In this document: positions 11,082-61,879 of the stretch, piece after piece | How the letters are laid out: each line of letters begins with the position of its first letter | How positions within the stretch are numbered: the stretch's first letter is position 1 | Source: a virus | Taxonomy: Duplodnaviria; Heunggongvirae; Uroviricota; Caudoviricetes | Direction: 5' to 3' (one strand) | DNA length: 64,000 nucleotides | IMG/VR virus record: IMGVR_UViG_3300045988_158233 | Position numbers and translations under genes: made by a program | Notes under the pieces: generated by a model | The model's input: the letters and a program-made list of their open reading frames with translations, nothing else | Databases searched by the model: none | Told to the model about the DNA's origin: nothing

Positions 11082-11280
11082 ACGGGAGAAGGAAACGCTT
11101 CATGAAATCAGTAAGTGGCCGGAGTTCCCTGAGTACTGGAAGCCTAAAACGCGAGCTAAGTTAGAGCGTTTAGGGTTGGTTGCAAACGTTTCTGAAACGT
11201 GGTGTTCGGCCAACTACCAGTTAACTGATAAAGGGAAAGTATTGCTACAGCAATTAGTAGAATCAGGAGTGTTAAAATGA
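11065..11280 (+). CDS. hypothetical small protein
   Basis: 71-aa ORF. Confidence 0.4.
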   Translation: MIVLSKREKETLHEISKWPEFPEYWKPKTRAKLERLGLVANVSETWCSANYQLTDKGKVLLQQLVESGVLK

Positions 11281-11425
11281 TTCCATACATCTCATTAGCT
11301 TTTATGGGTGGCTTCCTTATCGGCTTCGGCATCTGTCGTGATTTAATTAAGCAGGAACTTAAAACCAAAACACTGTGCATCGGAAAGCGTGTGTATCGGG
11401 TAGTTCATGAAACAAAGGTGAAAAA

Positions 11426-12228: not shown

Positions 12229-12491
12229 AAGACAGGATTGTTGTGTAGGTTTAACCACTGTTGCCATTGGTGCCTGTTTTCACAACAAATGATTCCATAC
12301 ATCACATTGTATAAATTACAAAGTAGGTGCTGTCCTCAAAAACATCATCTACTTAAAGATTTTGCCTACTATTGAGCGAAGTCGAAAGCGTCTGGCACTA
12401 ACGAAAAGTGCAAGTAGCGGTGCGTTTCCTGGCAGAAACTAAACCGTCGCGATTGGCACTGTTGAGTAATAAATACTGGCAGTGTCGAATT

Positions 12492-12571: not shown

Positions 12572-12658
12572 GGAGAGTTAGTCCGTAGAGGTAGCGGGGT
12601 AGACTGTAAATCTACTGTCATTGCGACTCGGGTGGTTCGACTCCATCACTCCCCACCA
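12572..12658 (+). tRNA. tRNA-Tyr (GTA), class II
   Basis: Anticodon stem GTAGA/TCTAC with loop CTGTAAA, long variable arm, T-loop TTCGACT, 3' ACCA; one A-C mismatch in acceptor stem, D-arm imperfect. Confidence 0.65.
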
Positions 12659-13234: not shown

Positions 13235-14455
13235 TTAATTAAAACCGAATGAATTAAGTTCTGCTTTGAATTTATCGACCATTTTTTCAACTTCGTTTAC
13301 AATTGCGTGAATCTCTTCGTCTTTTCTCGGATTAGAATTGAGGTCAAAATATGCCTTATATAAGGCATATTTTGACAAGCTTCCTTCAATATTTTCAGAG
13401 AAAATATTGGTACGACCATCAGTTAATAAGATATCAGCAGATCGGGAATTTAAATTATATTTATAGTAAATCTTTATTAGTCTGCTTATCTCTTTTTCAT
13501 TCTTGATTACCCTCTGTCTTTTACCAGCAATATTAAGACTCCAGCCTACATAACTAGTCAGATCGGAATTAAACTTACACACTTCCGCATCAGCTTTTTC
13601 CATATTTAGATTAATATTATTTCTCATGTGTAGCGGTAATTCGTTGAATTTTTGCTGTAAATGCTGTTTGCAGGGATTGTTGTAAGACCACAGAATTGCG
13701 AACGTAGCTCTTTGCATCCGGGTATTCAGATCGATGTTAAAGTTCTCACGATCACGAATCATTTCATCTACATAAAACTCTACAGCTTTTCGGTATTCTT
13801 TGTTAAAGATCTCGGTAACATACATTTCTAAATAATGGACTTTCGAGATTGCCTCATCAAAAAAAAGCTCACTCTCAAAGAAGTTGTATTTATTTAAGAG
13901 ATTAGAAAGTCTACTTAAGTCATAGGTTTTATTATTTTCAATATTAAGACCAAAAATGGCAATTAACAGACTTACTTTATGATTAATACTGCTACGTAAT
14001 TGAGCTATATAAATTCTCTTTTCATCTTCTGCTGATGACAGTAGATAAAACTCTTTATCTAAATAATTTAAAATTAGAATTATGTGATTTACATATTTAA
14101 TGTAAATAGGTTGTTTTGTTACATAATAATAAATGCTTTTGATGGAATTAATGCTCAATTTCGTATTAAACTCTTTGTCATTCAACAAAGTGTTATTTAC
14201 GTCCTCAAGTAATTTATCATGTTGCTCTAGTAATATTCCGTACCATTCCTTAAAAGAGGCTTTTTTCATTTCAAGAAGTGAATCTGCCGTTAATTGTGTT
14301 GCCTTCATTGCAGCTTTTGCACTATTTCTTGCCTCATAAGCAGCCCAAGCAGTAACAAAAGTAGCAAGTGAACCTATAGCCTCTTTGTATTCTTTAGCCA
14401 CATCCCAAAAAATAATAGTTATTACACACAATATGAGAATTAATATTAAAGGCAT
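13235..14455 (-). CDS. AT-rich membrane-anchored protein of unknown function (candidate accessory/exclusion gene)
   Basis: 406 aa, N-terminal TM helix LILILILCVITIIFW, rich in K/N/I/Y; markedly lower GC than neighbours; opposite strand to flanking genes. Confidence 0.6.
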   Translation of the reverse strand: MPLILILILCVITIIFWDVAKEYKEAIGSLATFVTAWAAYEARNSAKAAMKATQLTADSLLEMKKASFKEWYGILLEQHDKLLEDVNNTLLNDKEFNTKLSINSIKSIYYYVTKQPIYIKYVNHIILILNYLDKEFYLLSSAEDEKRIYIAQLRSSINHKVSLLIAIFGLNIENNKTYDLSRLSNLLNKYNFFESELFFDEAISKVHYLEMYVTEIFNKEYRKAVEFYVDEMIRDRENFNIDLNTRMQRATFAILWSYNNPCKQHLQQKFNELPLHMRNNINLNMEKADAEVCKFNSDLTSYVGWSLNIAGKRQRVIKNEKEISRLIKIYYKYNLNSRSADILLTDGRTNIFSENIEGSLSKYALYKAYFDLNSNPRKDEEIHAIVNEVEKMVDKFKAELNSFGFN

Positions 14456-14910: not shown

Positions 14911-14916
14911 TTTTAA

Positions 14917-14938
14917 CGGCTCACAGGAGCCGTTTTTT
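14917..14938 (+). terminator. rho-independent terminator
   Basis: cggctc-acag-gagccg followed by TTTTTT. Confidence 0.6.
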
Positions 14939-15075
14939 ATTCCCACCAAACTCACACCTGTTTCCATTAAAATTCAAAAAACAACGCCTGAATGATTCCA
15001 TACCTACTATGTATGGAATCATTGCTGAAAATGAGTTACTTTTACTCTTGATCCTATAAGAATCTATGCCTAATA

Positions 15076-15095
15076 TACTGTTTACTTATACAGTG
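15076..15095. promoter_or_regulatory. LexA box (SOS operator) upstream of integrase
   Basis: TACTGT-ttacttat-ACAGTG fits CTGT-N8-ACAG consensus; about 27 bp upstream of int start. Confidence 0.6.
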
Positions 15096-15121
15096 CATCG
15101 GCGTAACTCGGTGATTGTCAT

Positions 15122-16225
15122 ATGAAAAATAGCTTTGACAGAGCACGCGCTGCGGAGAACACCTCAAAAGAGGCGATAGAGTATCTCGAAAGAGCATCTC
15201 AAATGCAGGCCGTTATGATCTCCCAGGTCAGCAATGACATGAGATTCTCGGACGCATTCATGTTATTCACTCGCTTATCTCTGCTGATAACCAGACGTCG
15301 GCCAGAGATCGCTGTTCATTGTATTTTGATACATGTTTTGCCGCACATTGCCGATGTAAAAGTAAGTGACATTAATAGGTTCATGGTGAACCAACTGGTC
15401 AACCCACTAATACTGGATGGCAAAATTGTTATGGGCCGCCGCGTTTTCTCTCTGATGAAGCAGTTCCTTAGCTGGTGCGCCTTCCAGGGGATGATAGACG
15501 TGTCACCGTTAAACGATATGTCACTTAACAAAGTTGCCGGTGGCGCAAAGCCCACACCTCGCGAGCGGAAGCTGACCGACGCAGAGGTATGGGTGTTCTG
15601 GAATATATGGGACTACTTCAATGTGTGTGCTGGTACAAAATGGGCGGCCAGGCTGTGTCTTGTATCAGCAAGACGACCTGACGAAGTACTGCGGGCTAAA
15701 AAAAGTGAGTTCAATCTTAAGCGTGGGGTTTGGAATCAAGGCAAGAGGAACAAATCTGCCCGTGAGCATTCTCTGCCTTTAAGCTCATTAATGCGCACTT
15801 GTATTGAAGAGTTGTTCGAATATGGTAAAGACAGCCAGTGGCTCGTGCCTTCGAATAAAAAAATCGGGAAAGACCTTCCTATGTCTAAAGTGGCAATAGC
15901 CCAGGCATTACGTCGTATTCTGGAACGACCAGAACTGATGGAGCTTGAGCCATTTACACCCCGAGATTTGCGCCGTACTGCGCGTAGTTACTTCCCAGCA
16001 TTAGGCATAAGCCAGGAGGTATCACGTAAAATCATGAACCACAGTCTTGAGGGGATAGATCGGGTCTACGACCGGCACGATTATATGGACGAGATGCGAG
16101 ACGCCTTAGAAAGTTTCTCGACGTACATCGCATCAATCGTAGAGCAACCGGATTTAGACGAAATTGACCACAAATTTAAGGGAGATCGTCTATCAACAGA
16201 GCTTATTCGTGTAAATTTTTCATAG
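15122..16225 (+). CDS. tyrosine recombinase / integrase (P4-type)
   Basis: Catalytic-region motifs LVSARRPDEV (R), HSLPL, TPRDLRRTARS, and C-terminal RVYDRHDYMDEMRDAL with tyrosine nucleophile. Confidence 0.75.
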   Translation: MKNSFDRARAAENTSKEAIEYLERASQMQAVMISQVSNDMRFSDAFMLFTRLSLLITRRRPEIAVHCILIHVLPHIADVKVSDINRFMVNQLVNPLILDGKIVMGRRVFSLMKQFLSWCAFQGMIDVSPLNDMSLNKVAGGAKPTPRERKLTDAEVWVFWNIWDYFNVCAGTKWAARLCLVSARRPDEVLRAKKSEFNLKRGVWNQGKRNKSAREHSLPLSSLMRTCIEELFEYGKDSQWLVPSNKKIGKDLPMSKVAIAQALRRILERPELMELEPFTPRDLRRTARSYFPALGISQEVSRKIMNHSLEGIDRVYDRHDYMDEMRDALESFSTYIASIVEQPDLDEIDHKFKGDRLSTELIRVNFS

Positions 16226-16606
16226 AGACTTTATGGCCTCAACAACCTTTTGTGATGCGCCTTTCTCTTTACCGAATCGCTCGTTATATGCAGCAAGAAC
16301 CTGTTTTTCGTCCTCGTTAAGAGGAGCAGTGCCTTCTTTGTATAAAAATGCTGCGAGTTCGGGTTGGCGTTCTTCCAGCACCATCATCATAAGACGACTT
16401 GGCTCAATACCCAGTGCCAGCGCCAGCGGACGAACCTTATCGATAGGCAAAGGAATTTTGCCGCTTTTAATTAAAGAAAGGTTGTTGGCGTTTTTATACC
16501 CAATTGTTTTGGCTATCTGGGCCTGGCTCATAGGTGAGGATTCAATCAACCCTGCGATAAAAGCAGCGTAGCGACTTTCTATAAATTCAATCTTGTTATC
16601 AGACAT
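16220..16606 (-). CDS. XRE-family helix-turn-helix transcriptional regulator
   Basis: HTH segment MSQAQIAKTIGYKNANNLSLIKSGK; 128 aa; 3' end overlaps integrase stop. Confidence 0.65.
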   Translation of the reverse strand: MSDNKIEFIESRYAAFIAGLIESSPMSQAQIAKTIGYKNANNLSLIKSGKIPLPIDKVRPLALALGIEPSRLMMMVLEERQPELAAFLYKEGTAPLNEDEKQVLAAYNERFGKEKGASQKVVEAIKSL

Positions 16607-16637
16607 GGTTACAACCTTTGCGCGTTCAATTCTCTCT

Positions 16638-16651
16638 GGTAAGTGCTTACC
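16638..16651. promoter_or_regulatory. motif B core palindrome GGTAAGTGCTTACC adjacent to regulator gene start
   Basis: Perfect palindrome 30-45 bp upstream of the XRE regulator ATG; same core at 39700..39720. Confidence 0.45.
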
Positions 16652-16857
16652 GATATTACATCAAAGGTTAGGGTTGTAAAGCTATTATCATTTTTTTCGA
16701 TAGGCACTTAAAAGACCGGTTAAAGGCCATTGCACGGAGAAAAATTAGCCCAAAACAGGTAAGAAAATCAACTTGCATATGATATGTATGTATTCAGTAT
16801 TGATACAAATTTTAGTAGTATTCCTTACCATAGTATAAGTTAGAATGGATTGATTGA

Positions 16858-17070
16858 ATGAACACCACTATTTCCAGCCTAATCGCTCTTGAGATCGGAC
16901 ACGTACAGAAATTAGCTGATGAGTGTGTAGCTGACATCCTCACCGATCTACCGAATGAGCAGATTCAGGTTGGTGTGAATGACACAACTGGATTTATATT
17001 CGAACTTAACAACAAACGCTTCACGCTTCTCAATACCGGCTCCGGGTCTTTAGCCGTCAGAATCTGTTAA
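16858..17070 (+). CDS. hypothetical small protein
   Basis: 70-aa ORF. Confidence 0.4.
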   Translation: MNTTISSLIALEIGHVQKLADECVADILTDLPNEQIQVGVNDTTGFIFELNNKRFTLLNTGSGSLAVRIC

Positions 17071-20814: not shown

Positions 20815-23800
20815 CTTCTCACTTGGGGAGTCGGCTCTAAAAGCAGAAAACGCGGTGAAGATTGCCAGAGAAGCTGGCTACACCGCTGTAATTTCAGCAG
20901 ATAGCATGAATATTGCGAGCGTTATTCCACTACAACGTGCCGCTGGTGACGACATGGCGGTTATTTGTGGTGTGAAACTAAACATTGTTGATGATCCCAC
21001 ATACGAGCACCGGGCTAAACTTGCTAAAGAATCTATGAGATGTATGGAATCATTAGAGCGGGGACGTAACTACTCGTTTACCGCTCTAATTAAAAATGAG
21101 CAAGGATATCGCGACATCTGCGAACTAATGACGGTGGCCAACACACGAGAACAGTTCTACTTTGTACCGCGTCTCTCGCTCGAACAGTTGGTTTCTACAT
21201 ATGCCAAAGGCAACATCATCCTGCTCACTTCCGACATCGGTAGCGTGTTCCAACGCAACGATTTTGCAAAAATCATAAGCTCACTGATTACAGCGGGCGG
21301 GAAAGACAACTTCTATAGCGTGGTTTATCCGCACCCTACCCCATTCTACGACCAGATTAACGTCCGAGCGATGAAAGTAGCCAGCGCACTGAAAATAGAG
21401 CCAGTAGCGTTCTATCCCGCTTATTACGAATCGATCGACGATGCAGACATTAAAGACATTGCGCACATGGTTACGAACAACATAAAAATCGACCAGCCGC
21501 ATCGTCTGCGTATCCCCCACCAGCGAGATAACGCCGTCAATGGTCGCCGCCATCTCCTTGAGGCGCTTAAAGCCTTCTCCGTTCGCATGGATGTGCCGGT
21601 AACAGCTGCAATGGCCTCAACAACGCAGGACTCCATTATCGAAGCCTGTACATGGCGCTGGCATGAATTGCCACCAGCACTGCCCAAGATGGCAGACGAC
21701 GAGCCTGCAACGCTGATGAAACTGGCTGTTGCAGGGCTGCGCAAACGTCTTACCACAAAAGAGTTTGGCTACACACCACCGGCTTCTGAGAACAGGGTTT
21801 ATGTTGAGCGACTTAAGTACGAAATGGACACGCTTACTCGCCTGGGATTTTGTGGTTACTTCCTGATGGTACGCGATCTGATGAATCACAGCCGTGAAAC
21901 TGGCATTCCTGTCGGGCCTGGTCGTGGTTCCTCCGCTGGCTCTTTGGTGGCATGGTGCATAGGCATAACCAACGTCGACCCTATCCGTCACGGTCTTCTG
22001 TTTGAACGTTTCATCAACCCTGAGCGTCTCGACTTGCCAGATGCGGATTTGGACTTCAGCCAGGCACGTCGCCATGAGGTGATCGAGTATCTGAATGAAC
22101 GATACGGCGAAGATTACGTTGCGGGTATTCCGAACTTCACATATCTGGGCGCAGCCTCTGCACTACGTGACACCGCTCGTATTTATGGTGTGGAGTCCGC
22201 AGATATGGCGGTATCAAAAGAACTGAAGAACGTCGAGGATGATAGCCTTCCATTGGAAGAGCTGCGCGAACAACTGGCAAGTCTCGACAAATACGCGACA
22301 AAATATCCTGATGCATTCAATGCAGCCTGCAAGTTACAAAGCCTTATGCGTGGCTTTGGTAGACATGCGGCAGGGATGATCGTAGCAGGTGTTCCTCTGA
22401 CAGAACGTACACCGGTTGAGCGCCGTGGTGACGCGCGTTGTATCGCATTTGACAAGCGTTACTGCGAGGCTATGGGCCTAATTAAGCTGGACGTACTTGG
22501 CCTAGCAACTCTCGATTTGCTTGATAGTGCAAAACGCTACATTAAAGAGAACACAGGTGAAGATATCAATCTTGATGCCATTTCTCTTGAAGATCGCAAG
22601 GTGCTGGATGGTTTTGCTGCTGGGTACACTCAAGGTGTTTTCCAGCTTGAATCAGGCCCAATGCGCAAGCTGCTTAAAGATTTAGGTGGTGGAATTGAGC
22701 CAATGAGCTTTAAAACGGTCGTCGCTACGACTGCGCTCTTCCGGCCGGGGCCAATTCAGTCAGGCATGTTGGATGACTATGTTTCTGTCGCCAAAGGCTT
22801 TATGACGCCGGAATCATTACACCCCGTTCTTGATGAACTTACCGCGGAAACAAATGGCGTGATTCTCTATCAGGAACAGACGATGAACGCGACTCGATTG
22901 CTTGCCGGCTTCACAATGGCTGAAGCTGACGCTGTGCGTTCCGCAATCGGTAAGAAGAACATGGAAAAAATGAAGAGCATGGGCGAGAAGTTCATCGTTC
23001 AGGCTCAAGCTGGCTGGATAGACGTTGAGCTGGAAGATGGCACTACACAGCGCATTCACCGTGCGGAACATTTTAAATGCGAAGACGGAACTCTGAAAAC
23101 TGTCGAAGAGGCACTTGAGCACGGCGCAAAACTACCTATAAACGCAGTACGCGTTACAGCGTCACATCCAGGGCTATCAGAGATGAAAGCGAAGGAGATC
23201 TGGACCGCATTCGAAAAAAATGGTGCCTACCAGTTCAACAAATCACACTCTGTTGCTTACTCCTTGATCAGTTATCAATCTATGTGGTTGAAAACTCATT
23301 ATCCCGCAGAGTTTTTCGCTGCTGCTCTCACTATTCTTGGCGAAGATAAACACCAGGGGCTGGTTAAAGATGCGCTGACCTATGGTATTCGCGTATTGCC
23401 ACCAGACGTTAACGTGTCATCCAACCGAATCGAGATCCGCACGCTTGAAGATGGCAGCCAGGTGCTGTATGCGCCCTTCTCTGCTGTGAAGGGGTGTTCT
23501 GAGAATGGCTGCCAAGCCATCATGAGAGCGCGAGAAAAAGTTGGCGGCAAATTCGAGTCACTGGCGCAATTCGAAGAAGCTGTCGAGAAACGTGCCTGTA
23601 ATAGTCGAGTGCGCGAATCGCTGCAAAAAGTAGGGGCGTTTGCATCCATCGAGCCAGGTAGTCTGCCAGCAACTGATCCAGAGCGCCTACGCGACCAGGC
23701 TGAATTGATGGGAAACCTTGTCATAGACGCAGTTAAAGCCTCACGTCCGTTTGAGATGAACTCCAAACGTTCGGCTGAGATTAACGTGCTCATGACACGG

Positions 23801-24307
23801 ATGGCGGCTGAAATGGGCTTAGGTGATGAACTAATCCGCCCCAGCATTGGTATTAAGCCGAAAATCATGATCATTCTGGACAATGCGAACGGCAATGATG
23901 CTCGAACCGGTTACTTTATGGAGAACGGATACGACGATTTTAAGGCCAAGCTATTGACGGCTGGAGATTTACGCATGGGCGATCTGTATGTCACAGGCGT
24001 TTGCAAAAAGGTGAAAGACAAAGAAAAGGACTACACCAAAGACGAGATCGGCCAGTTCACCGACTTTATGCGTGAAGAGATCAATCTGGTACGTCCGACC
24101 TATGTGCTGACGTGTGGCAGCCGGGCGACGTCGCTCTTCAACAACAAGATCAAACCATCCGACCTGGTTGGACGCAAAGAGTATCTGCCGGAGCTAGATG
24201 TGACTGTTTTCTACGGATTTAACCCGAATATTTTGTACTTTCGCCCAGAGGAAGGCGAAAAGCTGGAAGCAATTCTTGCAGAGGTAGCGGAGACTATTAG
24301 CAAATGA
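20789..24307 (+). CDS. DnaE-family (Pol III alpha-like) DNA polymerase
   Basis: 1172 aa; palm motifs GYFLMVRDL...GIPVGPGRGSSAGSLVAWCIGIT..DP....LLFERFINPER and ..FDK......GLIKLDVLGL..; N-terminal PHP region lacks His residues. Confidence 0.85.
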   Translation: MKALMVRTDFSLGESALKAENAVKIAREAGYTAVISADSMNIASVIPLQRAAGDDMAVICGVKLNIVDDPTYEHRAKLAKESMRCMESLERGRNYSFTALIKNEQGYRDICELMTVANTREQFYFVPRLSLEQLVSTYAKGNIILLTSDIGSVFQRNDFAKIISSLITAGGKDNFYSVVYPHPTPFYDQINVRAMKVASALKIEPVAFYPAYYESIDDADIKDIAHMVTNNIKIDQPHRLRIPHQRDNAVNGRRHLLEALKAFSVRMDVPVTAAMASTTQDSIIEACTWRWHELPPALPKMADDEPATLMKLAVAGLRKRLTTKEFGYTPPASENRVYVERLKYEMDTLTRLGFCGYFLMVRDLMNHSRETGIPVGPGRGSSAGSLVAWCIGITNVDPIRHGLLFERFINPERLDLPDADLDFSQARRHEVIEYLNERYGEDYVAGIPNFTYLGAASALRDTARIYGVESADMAVSKELKNVEDDSLPLEELREQLASLDKYATKYPDAFNAACKLQSLMRGFGRHAAGMIVAGVPLTERTPVERRGDARCIAFDKRYCEAMGLIKLDVLGLATLDLLDSAKRYIKENTGEDINLDAISLEDRKVLDGFAAGYTQGVFQLESGPMRKLLKDLGGGIEPMSFKTVVATTALFRPGPIQSGMLDDYVSVAKGFMTPESLHPVLDELTAETNGVILYQEQTMNATRLLAGFTMAEADAVRSAIGKKNMEKMKSMGEKFIVQAQAGWIDVELEDGTTQRIHRAEHFKCEDGTLKTVEEALEHGAKLPINAVRVTASHPGLSEMKAKEIWTAFEKNGAYQFNKSHSVAYSLISYQSMWLKTHYPAEFFAAALTILGEDKHQGLVKDALTYGIRVLPPDVNVSSNRIEIRTLEDGSQVLYAPFSAVKGCSENGCQAIMRAREKVGGKFESLAQFEEAVEKRACNSRVRESLQKVGAFASIEPGSLPATDPERLRDQAELMGNLVIDAVKASRPFEMNSKRSAEINVLMTRMAAEMGLGDELIRPSIGIKPKIMIILDNANGNDARTGYFMENGYDDFKAKLLTAGDLRMGDLYVTGVCKKVKDKEKDYTKDEIGQFTDFMREEINLVRPTYVLTCGSRATSLFNNKIKPSDLVGRKEYLPELDVTVFYGFNPNILYFRPEEGEKLEAILAEVAETISK

Positions 24308-30658: not shown

Positions 30659-30686
30659 CAGGCGTCCAGTTGGACGCCTTTTTTAT
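30659..30686 (+). terminator. rho-independent terminator
   Basis: aggcgtcca-gttg-gacgcct followed by TTTTT. Confidence 0.6.
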
Positions 30687-61453: not shown

Positions 61454-61473
61454 TACTGTATGCATATACAGCA
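61454..61473. promoter_or_regulatory. LexA box upstream of umuD-prime-like gene
   Basis: tACTGTatgcatatACAGca = CTGT-N8-ACAG; 16 bp upstream of ATG, RBS aagagg between. Confidence 0.6.
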
Positions 61474-61489: not shown

Positions 61490-61879
61490 ATGGGCTTCCC
61501 TTCTCCTGCGGCGGATTATGCTGAGAGCCGTATTTCTCTTGATCAGCAGATAATTAGACATCCTTCAGCGACCTACTTCATGAGGGCGGCTGATAGTCAT
61601 CATCGTGAGGGAATATTGCAGGGTGCATTGCTGGTGGTCGATTCCTCACTGACTCCTGTTGATGGATCTCTTCTTGTATGTGCTCTGGATGGGGAATATC
61701 GCGTAAAAAGATACCGGAAGTATCCACGTCAGCATCTGGAGGATTTAAGAACTGGTAAGAAGGAAGCATTGCCAAAGGATGATGATGGATGCACGGGCAG
61801 CAATGCCGTGTTTGGTGTGATCACTCACATTATCAACGACGCAAGAAGTGGCGAGTTTGATGATTGTCCTGTGATGTAG
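61490..61879 (+). CDS. UmuD-prime-like (HumD-like) S24 peptidase-family protein lacking the N-terminal arm
   Basis: Begins MGFPSPAADY (matches UmuD sequence from the Cys24-Gly25 cleavage site onward), retains DS (Ser nucleophile region) and VKR (Lys) positions. Confidence 0.7.
   Translation: MGFPSPAADYAESRISLDQQIIRHPSATYFMRAADSHHREGILQGALLVVDSSLTPVDGSLLVCALDGEYRVKRYRKYPRQHLEDLRTGKKEALPKDDDGCTGSNAVFGVITHIINDARSGEFDDCPVM

Follow-up and report, generated by a model that had tools for sequence, protein, structure and literature searches.

A LexA-boxed tyrosine recombinase gene and its putative lox-like site in SSU5-type phage-plasmids

This paper concerns a tyrosine recombinase gene, which we call int, and the DNA directly upstream of it, in a stretch of 64,000 nucleotides (hereafter the window) from the Caudoviricetes record IMGVR_UViG_3300045988_158233 of IMG/VR. 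In front of int lie a LexA (SOS) box, the two hexamers of a promoter and a 33-bp palindromic site, all of which are real and under purifying selection. The reading that we favour, with a confidence only a little above even, is that these parts form a self-contained Cre/lox-like module for multimer resolution or cyclisation, placed under LexA control and carried by an extrachromosomal phage-plasmid; the function of the module is what we infer from them. The four parts, in their order along the DNA, are the following.

14991-15023, no strand: candidate recombination core site, consisting of AATGATTCCATAC (14991-15003), the spacer CTACTAT (15004-15010) and GTATGGAATCATT (15011-15023)

15048-15076, plus strand: candidate sigma-70 promoter of int, read from the sequence, with -35 hexamer TTGATC (15048-15053), a 17-nt spacer and -10 hexamer TAATAT (15071-15076)

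15076-15095, no strand: LexA (SOS) box TACTGTTTACTTATACAGTG, which shares its first base with the -10 hexamer and spans the expected transcription start

15122-16225, plus strand: int, a tyrosine recombinase of 367 amino acids without an arm-binding domain, as judged from Pfam, conserved residues and an AlphaFold2 model

The window is a phage-plasmid of the SSU5/pHCM2/pMT1 type. Its gene order is that of the supergroup (helicase, primase, ligase, tRNAs, glutaredoxin, int, helix-turn-helix regulator, CobT-like protein, AAA ATPase, dnaE). The region around int is about 98% identical to Escherichia phage Cyrano (pLF82, OV696614) and 74% identical to 110-kb Klebsiella 'phages' that are in truth plasmids. 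The original prediction, a model-made reading of the letters introduced below, recognised neither the phage-plasmid nor the 33-bp site.

An earlier model-made reading of the letters alone, which we call the original prediction, had placed a strong LexA box about 27 bp before the recombinase gene, and our analysis bears this out: the gap between the end of the box and the ATG at 15122 is 26 nt. Since the bare pattern CTGT-N8-ACAG is not rare in a window of this size, and turns up by chance about once per 64 kb (2 matches against 0.94 expected), a match alone proves little. The full 20-mer, by contrast, is rare. To grade it we built an index of the heterology type from 28 E. coli SOS boxes, whose absolute values are approximate. 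The int box agrees with the consensus TACTGTATATATATACAGTA at 16 of 20 bases, all four mismatches falling at weakly constrained positions, and its index of 4.4/5.6 lies in the range of recA, sulA and uvrB. Besides this box, only one at 61454, before a humD gene, scores below 11.5 in the 64 kb (3.6), and the best index among 20 shuffled sequences was 7.8.

The strongest case against a chance match comes from conservation. Among the 80 IMG/VR contigs that encode a relative with 82-100% protein identity, 79 carry the box 44-49 nt 5' of the ATG; they show at least 14 spacer variants with the CTGT and ACAG arms fixed, and 78 of them have an index of at most 6.2. Beyond these contigs, the box occurs in Yersinia pestis pMT1, in Salmonella Typhi pHCM2, in plasmids of Enterobacter, Citrobacter and Kluyvera, and in two Klebsiella plasmid lineages, one of which has an Int only 59% identical; in Buttiauxella it is degenerate. 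At the int homologues of plasmids that are not phages, in Chimaeribacter, Rahnella, Photorhabdus and Pantoea, no LexA box was found, the best index there being at least 13.8. The candidate promoter, which the box overlaps, is deduced from the sequence together with its conservation: the hexamers score 8/12, under the threshold of the promoter scan, and in an alignment of nine lineages both hexamers and the LexA arms are invariant or nearly so while the intervening and flanking sequence drifts.

The box at 61454 offers an internal positive control, because the gene behind it belongs to a classic SOS class.

61454-61473, no strand: second LexA box TACTGTATGCATATACAGCA, 16 nt 5' of the humD-like gene at 61490-61879 (plus strand)

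HumD is a UmuD-like protein, and its gene is a classic SOS gene. The humD-like gene of the window (61490-61879) encodes a UmuD'-like protein of 129 amino acids that matches the NCBIfam HumD equivalog at 8e-66. A scan of the complete Cyrano genome likewise gives strong LexA boxes only before int and before humD, and these two genes would make up the whole predicted LexA regulon of the element. SOS control of int is likely, with LexA predicted to bind the box. The original prediction spoke of SOS-induced recombinase expression, which is the natural inference from a LexA box on the promoter and which fits the RNA-seq of LF82.

These RNA-seq data are a re-analysis of GSE154648 in the S1 table of PMC9928086, whose column labels we read by interpretation. 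In LB, after 6 h in medium and after 6 h in macrophages, the log2 values are 5.6, 6.1 and 10.3 for int (CYRAN_44) and 7.2, 9.1 and 12.2 for humD (PMC9928086). That is, in macrophages, which the authors call genotoxic and SOS-inducing (PMC9928086), int rises about 19-fold and humD about 9-fold, while dnaE and the helicase gene stay flat. The joint rise of int and humD is compatible with LexA control and is not a proof of it. The toxin-antitoxin genes hicAB and kacAT are among the Cyrano transcripts most induced in macrophages.

The 33-bp site is a perfect 13-7-13 inverted repeat, situated 25 bp 5' of the int -35 and about 100 bp 5' of int itself. It stands 5' of int in every homologue examined, and is kept even on those plasmids of Pantoea, Rahnella, Photorhabdus and Chimaeribacter that have only int in common with the element. 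Two arm positions change in mirror symmetry, from ATTCCATAC to ACTCCAGAC; that is, of the two arm types, ATGATTCCATAC and ATGACTCCAGAC, each has both substitutions mirrored in the opposite arm. The outermost arm base is also variable, mostly in mirror. The spacer is constantly 7 bp long, and its sequence is specific to the lineage: in E. coli we find CTACTAT (the window's group) and TTGTAAG (a second group), and elsewhere CTATTAA (pHCM2, pMT1 and Enterobacter), TTGGTAG (the Klebsiella group) and CTATAGA (pKSB1_7G.2). Fixed symmetric arms around a short, free centre of constant length are the anatomy of tyrosine-recombinase core sites such as loxP, FRT and dif, and the palindrome is presumably the target of Int.

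Full copies of the site are scarce. The window holds no second full site when up to 3 mismatches are allowed in each arm; in 5,426 complete E. coli genomes there is none on a chromosome or on a plasmid that lacks int; and among 185,579 species genomes the site occurs at only seven loci, each beside the int upstream region or the int start. As RNA the site folds at -16.8 kcal/mol. A terminator scan did not call it a terminator, no U-run follows the palindrome, and no known RNA family other than tRNAs was found around it. In the full-text library that we searched we found no description of the site sequence, of LexA control or of the function of int.

Int matches Phage_integrase (PF00589) at 2.9e-10 and Phage_int_M (PF22022) below the cut-off. 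R184/R185, K211, R284 (in the motif R281-D-L-R284) and Y316 never vary across 28 aligned homologues, and H307 hardly does. The AlphaFold2 model (pLDDT 84) has a helical N-terminus, and its top match in the PDB is to the core-binding and catalytic domains of lambda Int, over residues 75-356 at a TM score of 0.6-0.73. The structure search ranks lambda Int first, then Xer proteins and the Int of Tn1549, with Cre far lower (Foldseek E-values of 8.5e-7 for lambda Int versus 0.09 for Cre), and there is no detectable sequence similarity between Int and Cre (BLASTP E-value 2.7). The family to which Int belongs (43-100% identity, about 365-375 amino acids) is confined to Enterobacterales, and the arm-binding domain PF13356 was not found in Int or in any listed member of it. 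The next relatives (P0114-P0120; 26-34% identity, 400-460 amino acids) are of the P4 type and do carry PF13356. The label 'P4-type' given in the original prediction therefore suits these nearest outside relatives better than Int itself, which lacks PF13356 and whose match to the CP4-57-type NCBIfam model is limited to positions 137-393 of 413. Int is, we conclude, a tyrosine recombinase of lambda/P4 descent that kept its catalytic residues and fold but no longer has an arm-binding domain. Such an arm-less enzyme fits a simple site that is free of arm sites.

The distribution of gene and site bears on what the recombinase acts upon. Both occur in 252 of the 5,426 complete E. coli genomes, and all 255 places of the gene are on plasmids. 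A search with the 33-bp site alone returns the same 252 genomes, with two matches per plasmid that are the two strands of one palindrome, so that there is one site per replicon. Chromosomal copies number zero, among the 255 gene places as among the 504 site matches. In PLSDB the gene is carried by 934 plasmids, all matches being plasmids, and the homologues in Chimaeribacter, Rahnella and Pantoea sit singly on plasmids of 0.25-0.56 Mb. Since there is one target per replicon, a substrate for the recombinase arises only when two copies are joined or co-resident. This speaks for the resolution of multimers, for cyclisation, or for recombination of one element with a related one, and against integration. 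The relative Cyrano exists in the cell as a replicating plasmid of about 5.5 copies, forms siphovirus particles and is induced 39-fold by ciprofloxacin (PMC9928086). It is a partitioned plasmid, whose annotation includes ParA, ParB and RepA, and int is the sole site-specific recombinase in that annotation.

The mechanism that we propose, in which the resolution or cyclisation role is inferred, would run as follows. Two sites would come together in three situations only: when plasmid copies are joined in a multimer, when infecting DNA is terminally redundant, or when related elements form a cointegrate. The recombinase would convert such DNA to monomers or circles, as Cre-loxP does for P1. In the lysogen, host LexA sitting on the box over the -10 and the transcription start would keep int expression low; DNA damage would remove LexA and raise the level of recombinase. 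The timing would suit the task: RecA-driven recombination and the onset of lytic replication would then be generating multimers. The link to LexA probably serves the phage life cycle, because the box is specific to the phage-plasmid lineages.

Several observations weigh against this proposal. The first histidine of the active site (the HxxR motif) is an arginine, R281, in 28 of 28 homologues, an unusual change with which activity would still be possible. The palindrome could be an operator or a hairpin rather than a recombination site. The absence of the box from the homologues on plain plasmids suggests that the SOS link is for the phage life cycle rather than for the control of plasmid dimers, and a resolvase made during lytic growth would counter the formation of concatemers. 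The macrophage RNA-seq is no clean SOS experiment, and Cyrano genes without a LexA box (CYRAN_46, hicAB, CYRAN_60/61) rise equally in it. Finally, a simple lox-like model does not account for three isolated, conserved copies of the site arm that lie at a distance from the site.

11276-11291, plus strand: arm copy, AATGATTCCATAC followed by ATC, at the start codon of a 50-amino-acid open reading frame (ORF); same position in pHCM2 and in a Klebsiella plasmid

12288-12303, plus strand: arm copy, AATGATTCCATAC followed by ATC, intergenic, before the tRNA cluster

21039-21054, minus strand: arm copy inside dnaE, over the codons C-M-E-S-L; same codon position in pHCM2 and in the Klebsiella plasmid, with diverged flanks

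About 0.008 chance matches to a 12-mer of the arm are expected in the window. The isolated copies are exact and read (A/G)TGATTCCATAC, usually followed by ATC, and all of them point toward the full site, being on the plus strand to its left and on the minus strand to its right. The copy at 12288 is kept in pHCM2, pTB212, Klebsiella, Buttiauxella and pKSB1_7G.2, while the sequence around it is not; in pKSB1_7G.2 it reads GTGATTCC, the G variant, which is also the sequence of that plasmid's own site arms. In the relatives the copies stand at 24212, 23188 and 11340 of pHCM2 (L021), at 15439, 16439 and 28015 of the Klebsiella plasmid (L106), and at 30671 of pKSB1_7G.2 (L107). A further arm-like stretch inside int, at 15728, was set aside: a Val codon in it is variable, and the motif goes with the W-N-Q-G codons, which makes a coding coincidence probable.

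At its 3' end int runs into a second gene, and this arrangement is the basis of one of the alternatives weighed below.

16220-16606, minus strand: helix-turn-helix regulator of 128 amino acids, convergent with int with a 3' overlap of 6 nt; weak match to HTH_19, and to phrog_8, transcriptional regulator

The original prediction was right in setting the recombinase 2 kb from the tRNA cluster and beside an XRE regulator. The 3' ends of int and the regulator gene share 6-9 nt in all phage-plasmid lineages, a tail-to-tail overlap so tight that no terminator would fit between the two genes. No peptidase S24 or other self-cleavage domain was found in the regulator. On Photorhabdus pPAU1, a 29-kb plasmid that is not a phage, a regulator homologue with 49% identity also stands beside int, again tail to tail with it (L011, 4093-4485, minus strand), and the regulator may belong to the recombinase module rather than being the master repressor of the prophage. 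We found no operators common to the int promoter and to the promoter region of the regulator itself. Near-palindromes occur in the region 16635-16715, between the regulator gene and a divergent ORF of 70 amino acids (16858-17070), namely GGTAAGTGCTTACC at 16638-16651 and a related copy at 16697-16715; they are candidate operators, and the int promoter has nothing like them. An SOS-induced antirepressor 3' of int was also considered, in the form of a plus-strand ORF at 16233-16571 antisense to the regulator; this ORF is broken in the relatives and was rejected as a shadow ORF.

To the left of the site, the interval that separates it from the glutaredoxin gene grx (14911-14990 in the window) varies even among near-identical relatives. 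In the window it is empty. In Cyrano it holds a moron, CYRAN_43, expressed about 720-fold above background (L001, 8214-9092); in pGD31-F25, pEc-JB2-4, Enterobacter and Kluyvera it holds a YafO toxin pair, in Klebsiella colicin immunity together with YafO, and in Y. pestis pMT1 the caf1 operon of the F1 capsule. Further coordinates of this hot spot in relatives are 7816-9000 of L022 and 1-2870 of L002. Where E. coli relatives match the module at 99.2-99.8% identity, their homology to the window begins precisely at position 14991, on the outer edge of the left arm. Such a break would be the expected trace of a crossover at the site, and equally that of any edge of a conserved block. Two more specific ideas were rejected. 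Cassettes bounded by sites on both sides are contradicted by a left boundary that lies inside the 3' end of grx, where there is neither a site nor a half-site; and a 240-kb plasmid that might have been a cointegrate joined at the site has no such junction, carrying instead the YafO variant of the cargo.

Multimer resolution or cyclisation has to be weighed against the other roles that the locus might play. The least probable of these, and in our view a very improbable one, is that Int serves as an ordinary phage integrase, inserting the element into the chromosome and excising it, or that it marks a nested island, both of which the original prediction had entertained. The annotation 'integrase', the P4-type integrases among its closest outside relatives and the tRNA genes 2 kb away would all agree with this. 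Yet gene and site are absent from the E. coli chromosomes (0 of 255 and 0 of 504), the 934 matches in PLSDB are all plasmids, and the arm-binding domain is missing. Nor does the window contain repeats derived from a tRNA, as no segment of at least 14 nt from its four tRNA genes recurs in it; the tRNAs are the phage's own genes. A nested island is contradicted by the place of int in the persistent, conserved backbone of the SSU5 supergroup (PMC7969092), and the homologues that sit singly on 0.25-0.56 Mb plasmids also count against this alternative. Among the three functions that the original prediction offered, dimer resolution is thus the best supported. A quite different alternative, and one that is compatible with our preferred explanation, takes the LexA-controlled int promoter to serve chiefly as the sensor of SOS in the switch between lysis and lysogeny, with recombination secondary: derepressed transcription through int would lower expression of the regulator by polymerase collision or antisense RNA. 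We judge this unlikely, though by no means negligible. It would explain how Cyrano is induced 39-fold by ciprofloxacin even though its regulator has no self-cleavage domain and its LexA boxes stand only before int and humD, and it draws on the tail-to-tail overlap of 6-9 nt kept in all phage-plasmid lineages, on the restriction of the box to phage-plasmids and its absence from plain plasmids, on the LexA site beside lox in P1, which is annotated as controlling the anti-immunity gene coi, and on CYRAN_46, which is divergent from the regulator and rises 26-fold alongside int. However, the regulator is only a candidate for the lysogeny repressor and has its 49%-identical counterpart beside int on a non-phage plasmid; the reads over its gene, from one strand or both, go up, not down, in macrophages; a terminator-like hairpin at 16446-16462 could end int transcripts 220 nt into the regulator gene; and no Cyrano virions are made in macrophages despite the raised int (PMC9928086).

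The remaining alternatives turn on the palindrome itself. It might be an operator for Int or for another protein, the recombinase acting elsewhere or being inactive. The site does lie only 25 bp from the -35, and on plain plasmids its distance of 45-70 nt from the ATG could make it overlap the promoter; the first catalytic His is replaced by Arg; and the isolated arm copies at conserved distant positions resemble binding sites more than crossover sites. Against this, arms of 13 bp around a constant, lineage-specific spacer of 7 bp are the signature of a tyrosine-recombinase core site, and the other catalytic residues are invariant over 43-100% identity, which argues for a kept enzymatic function. 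Autoregulation and recombination at one site are, moreover, not exclusive: the TnpI proteins of Tn4430 and Tn5401 each autoregulate and recombine at the same site. We regard a pure operator as quite improbable, and we think no better of the idea that the locus is chiefly an SOS-gated platform for the exchange of cargo, comparable to an integron integrase and attI, in which recombination between the sites of co-resident elements would swap the cargo to the left. The interval directly left of the site is indeed the variable spot of the backbone, the homology of near-identical relatives breaks at the outer edge of the left arm, and the layout mirrors that of an integron, in which the recombinase promoter carries a LexA box, the site stands upstream of the gene and the cargo lies beyond it (PMC3108266). 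But the cassettes are not flanked by sites, their left boundary being in the grx 3' end; the similarity of Cyrano to the window extends about 20 nt to the left of the site; there are no orphan sites in the E. coli genomes, and the seven loci among the species genomes have flanks that match the int upstream region or start; and ordinary homologous replacement also breaks at the edge of a conserved block. An integron-like exchange role is possible. A more speculative picture, unlikely on the whole, combines several of these roles: a LexA-governed, lox-like module would double as a sensor of DNA damage, transcription of int would run antisense into the regulator, the site would be the crossover point for cargo, and the inward-pointing arm copies at 11276, 12288 and 21039 would be part of the machinery. 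The cargo, on that picture, may include toxin-antitoxin pairs, immunity genes and the F1 capsule operon of pMT1.

A resolution or cyclisation module of the kind we favour has its closest counterpart in Cre-loxP of phage P1. Both have a palindromic site with 13-bp arms and a short asymmetric spacer, directly 5' of the recombinase gene, on an extrachromosomal prophage with one site per genome, and both elements have a LexA-boxed humD. The P1 record contains a LexA site at 46-65, ACCTGTAAATCCATACAGTT, which is 29 bp from loxP and upstream of the cre promoters. The systems differ in that the Int spacer is 7 bp long versus 8 bp in loxP, and in that the LexA site of P1 is annotated for the leftward promoter P2coi (coi, anti-immunity), whereas here the box is on the promoter that reads into the recombinase gene. 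Because Int and Cre have no sequence similarity, two phage-plasmid lineages have reached a similar layout with unrelated enzymes. By analogy the locus would work like Cre-lox from outside the Cre clade. The int -35 at 15048-15053, TTGATC, holds a Dam site (GATC) and is the same hexamer as the Dam-regulated -35 of P3cre in P1 (L112, 104-109), which hints at methylation-sensitive expression. We also considered a leftward promoter with a LexA box, equivalent to P2coi, and rejected it: by eye there is just a -10-like TATATT without a -35, and the leftward neighbour in Cyrano, CYRAN_43, is constitutive.

Other systems share some traits with the locus. Several tyrosine recombinases of plasmids and transposons have their target directly upstream of their own gene and reduce multimers or cointegrates, namely ResD-rfsF of F, Rsd-crs of the Salmonella virulence plasmids and TnpI-IRS of Tn4430 and Tn5401; to our knowledge none of them is controlled by LexA. 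Tn4430 and Tn5401 have extra recombinase-binding repeats outside the core site. In the ResD, Rsd and TnpI systems, however, such repeats adjoin the core or sit in the transposon ends, and are not found kilobases away in a fixed polarity. The integron integrase IntI is reportedly under LexA control, in work attributed to Guerin et al., 2009. The likeness to IntI and attI lies in the LexA box over a tyrosine-recombinase promoter, the site upstream and the variable cargo beyond it (Cambray et al. 2011, PMC3108266). Unlike integrons, the present locus has a site that is a perfect double-stranded palindrome, and its gene and site have the same direction rather than diverging from a cassette array; Int matched no integron-integrase model in NCBIfam or Pfam, and in the cargo left of the site we found no attC-like cassette boundaries and no repeated boundary elements. 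With the tRNA-targeting integrases of the P4/CP4-57 type Int has PF22022 and PF00589 in common, at 26-34% identity, and it departs from them in the lack of PF13356 and of a chromosomal att site and in being always borne on a plasmid. Like XerCD-dif, cer and psi, the module would resolve dimers at a short site composed of a pair of binding arms and a spacer of 6-8 bp; Xer, by contrast, uses paired recombinases encoded by the host and an asymmetric 11-6-11 site, whereas here there is one enzyme, encoded by the element, and a symmetric 13-7-13 site. The structural matches of Xer proteins to the Int model are also weaker than that of lambda Int.

What is at stake is the role of a backbone gene, annotated only as 'integrase', in one of the largest groups of phage-plasmids, which includes Y. 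pestis pMT1, S. Typhi pHCM2 and the plasmids of about 110 kb that often occur in Klebsiella and E. coli and in part carry resistance genes. If our reading is true, plasmid maintenance or genome cyclisation in this group would be wired directly to the SOS response of the host, in parallel to the LexA site beside loxP in P1. The chief hot spot for cargo in the group would then abut a recombination site inducible by DNA damage, which bears on how virulence and defence cargo might be reshuffled under SOS-inducing antibiotics. A compact recombinase with a 33-bp target, unrelated to Cre, might also become an orthogonal engineering tool beside Cre/lox, Dre/rox and Vika/vox.

We close with some minor features of the locus and its surroundings. 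Many lineages, Pantoea among them, have a weakly conserved motif, CAGA(A)TT..., about 24 nt left of the site (14967-14990 in the window; the equivalent 24-27 nt in L003, L005, L006, L008, L012, L013, L019 and L020), which might serve as an accessory binding element or belong to a leftward promoter. The window has a minus-strand ORF of 406 amino acids between the tRNA cluster and the glutaredoxin gene (13235-14455; phrog_18168, no Pfam match) that is missing from Cyrano, as is an extra tRNA-Tyr gene at 12572-12658. Cyrano itself encodes a T4-like set of recombination and replication proteins, comprising a UvsX/RecA-like protein, UvsY, UvsW, a gp32-like single-stranded-DNA-binding protein, SbcCD and RuvC, and also a methionyl-tRNA synthetase.

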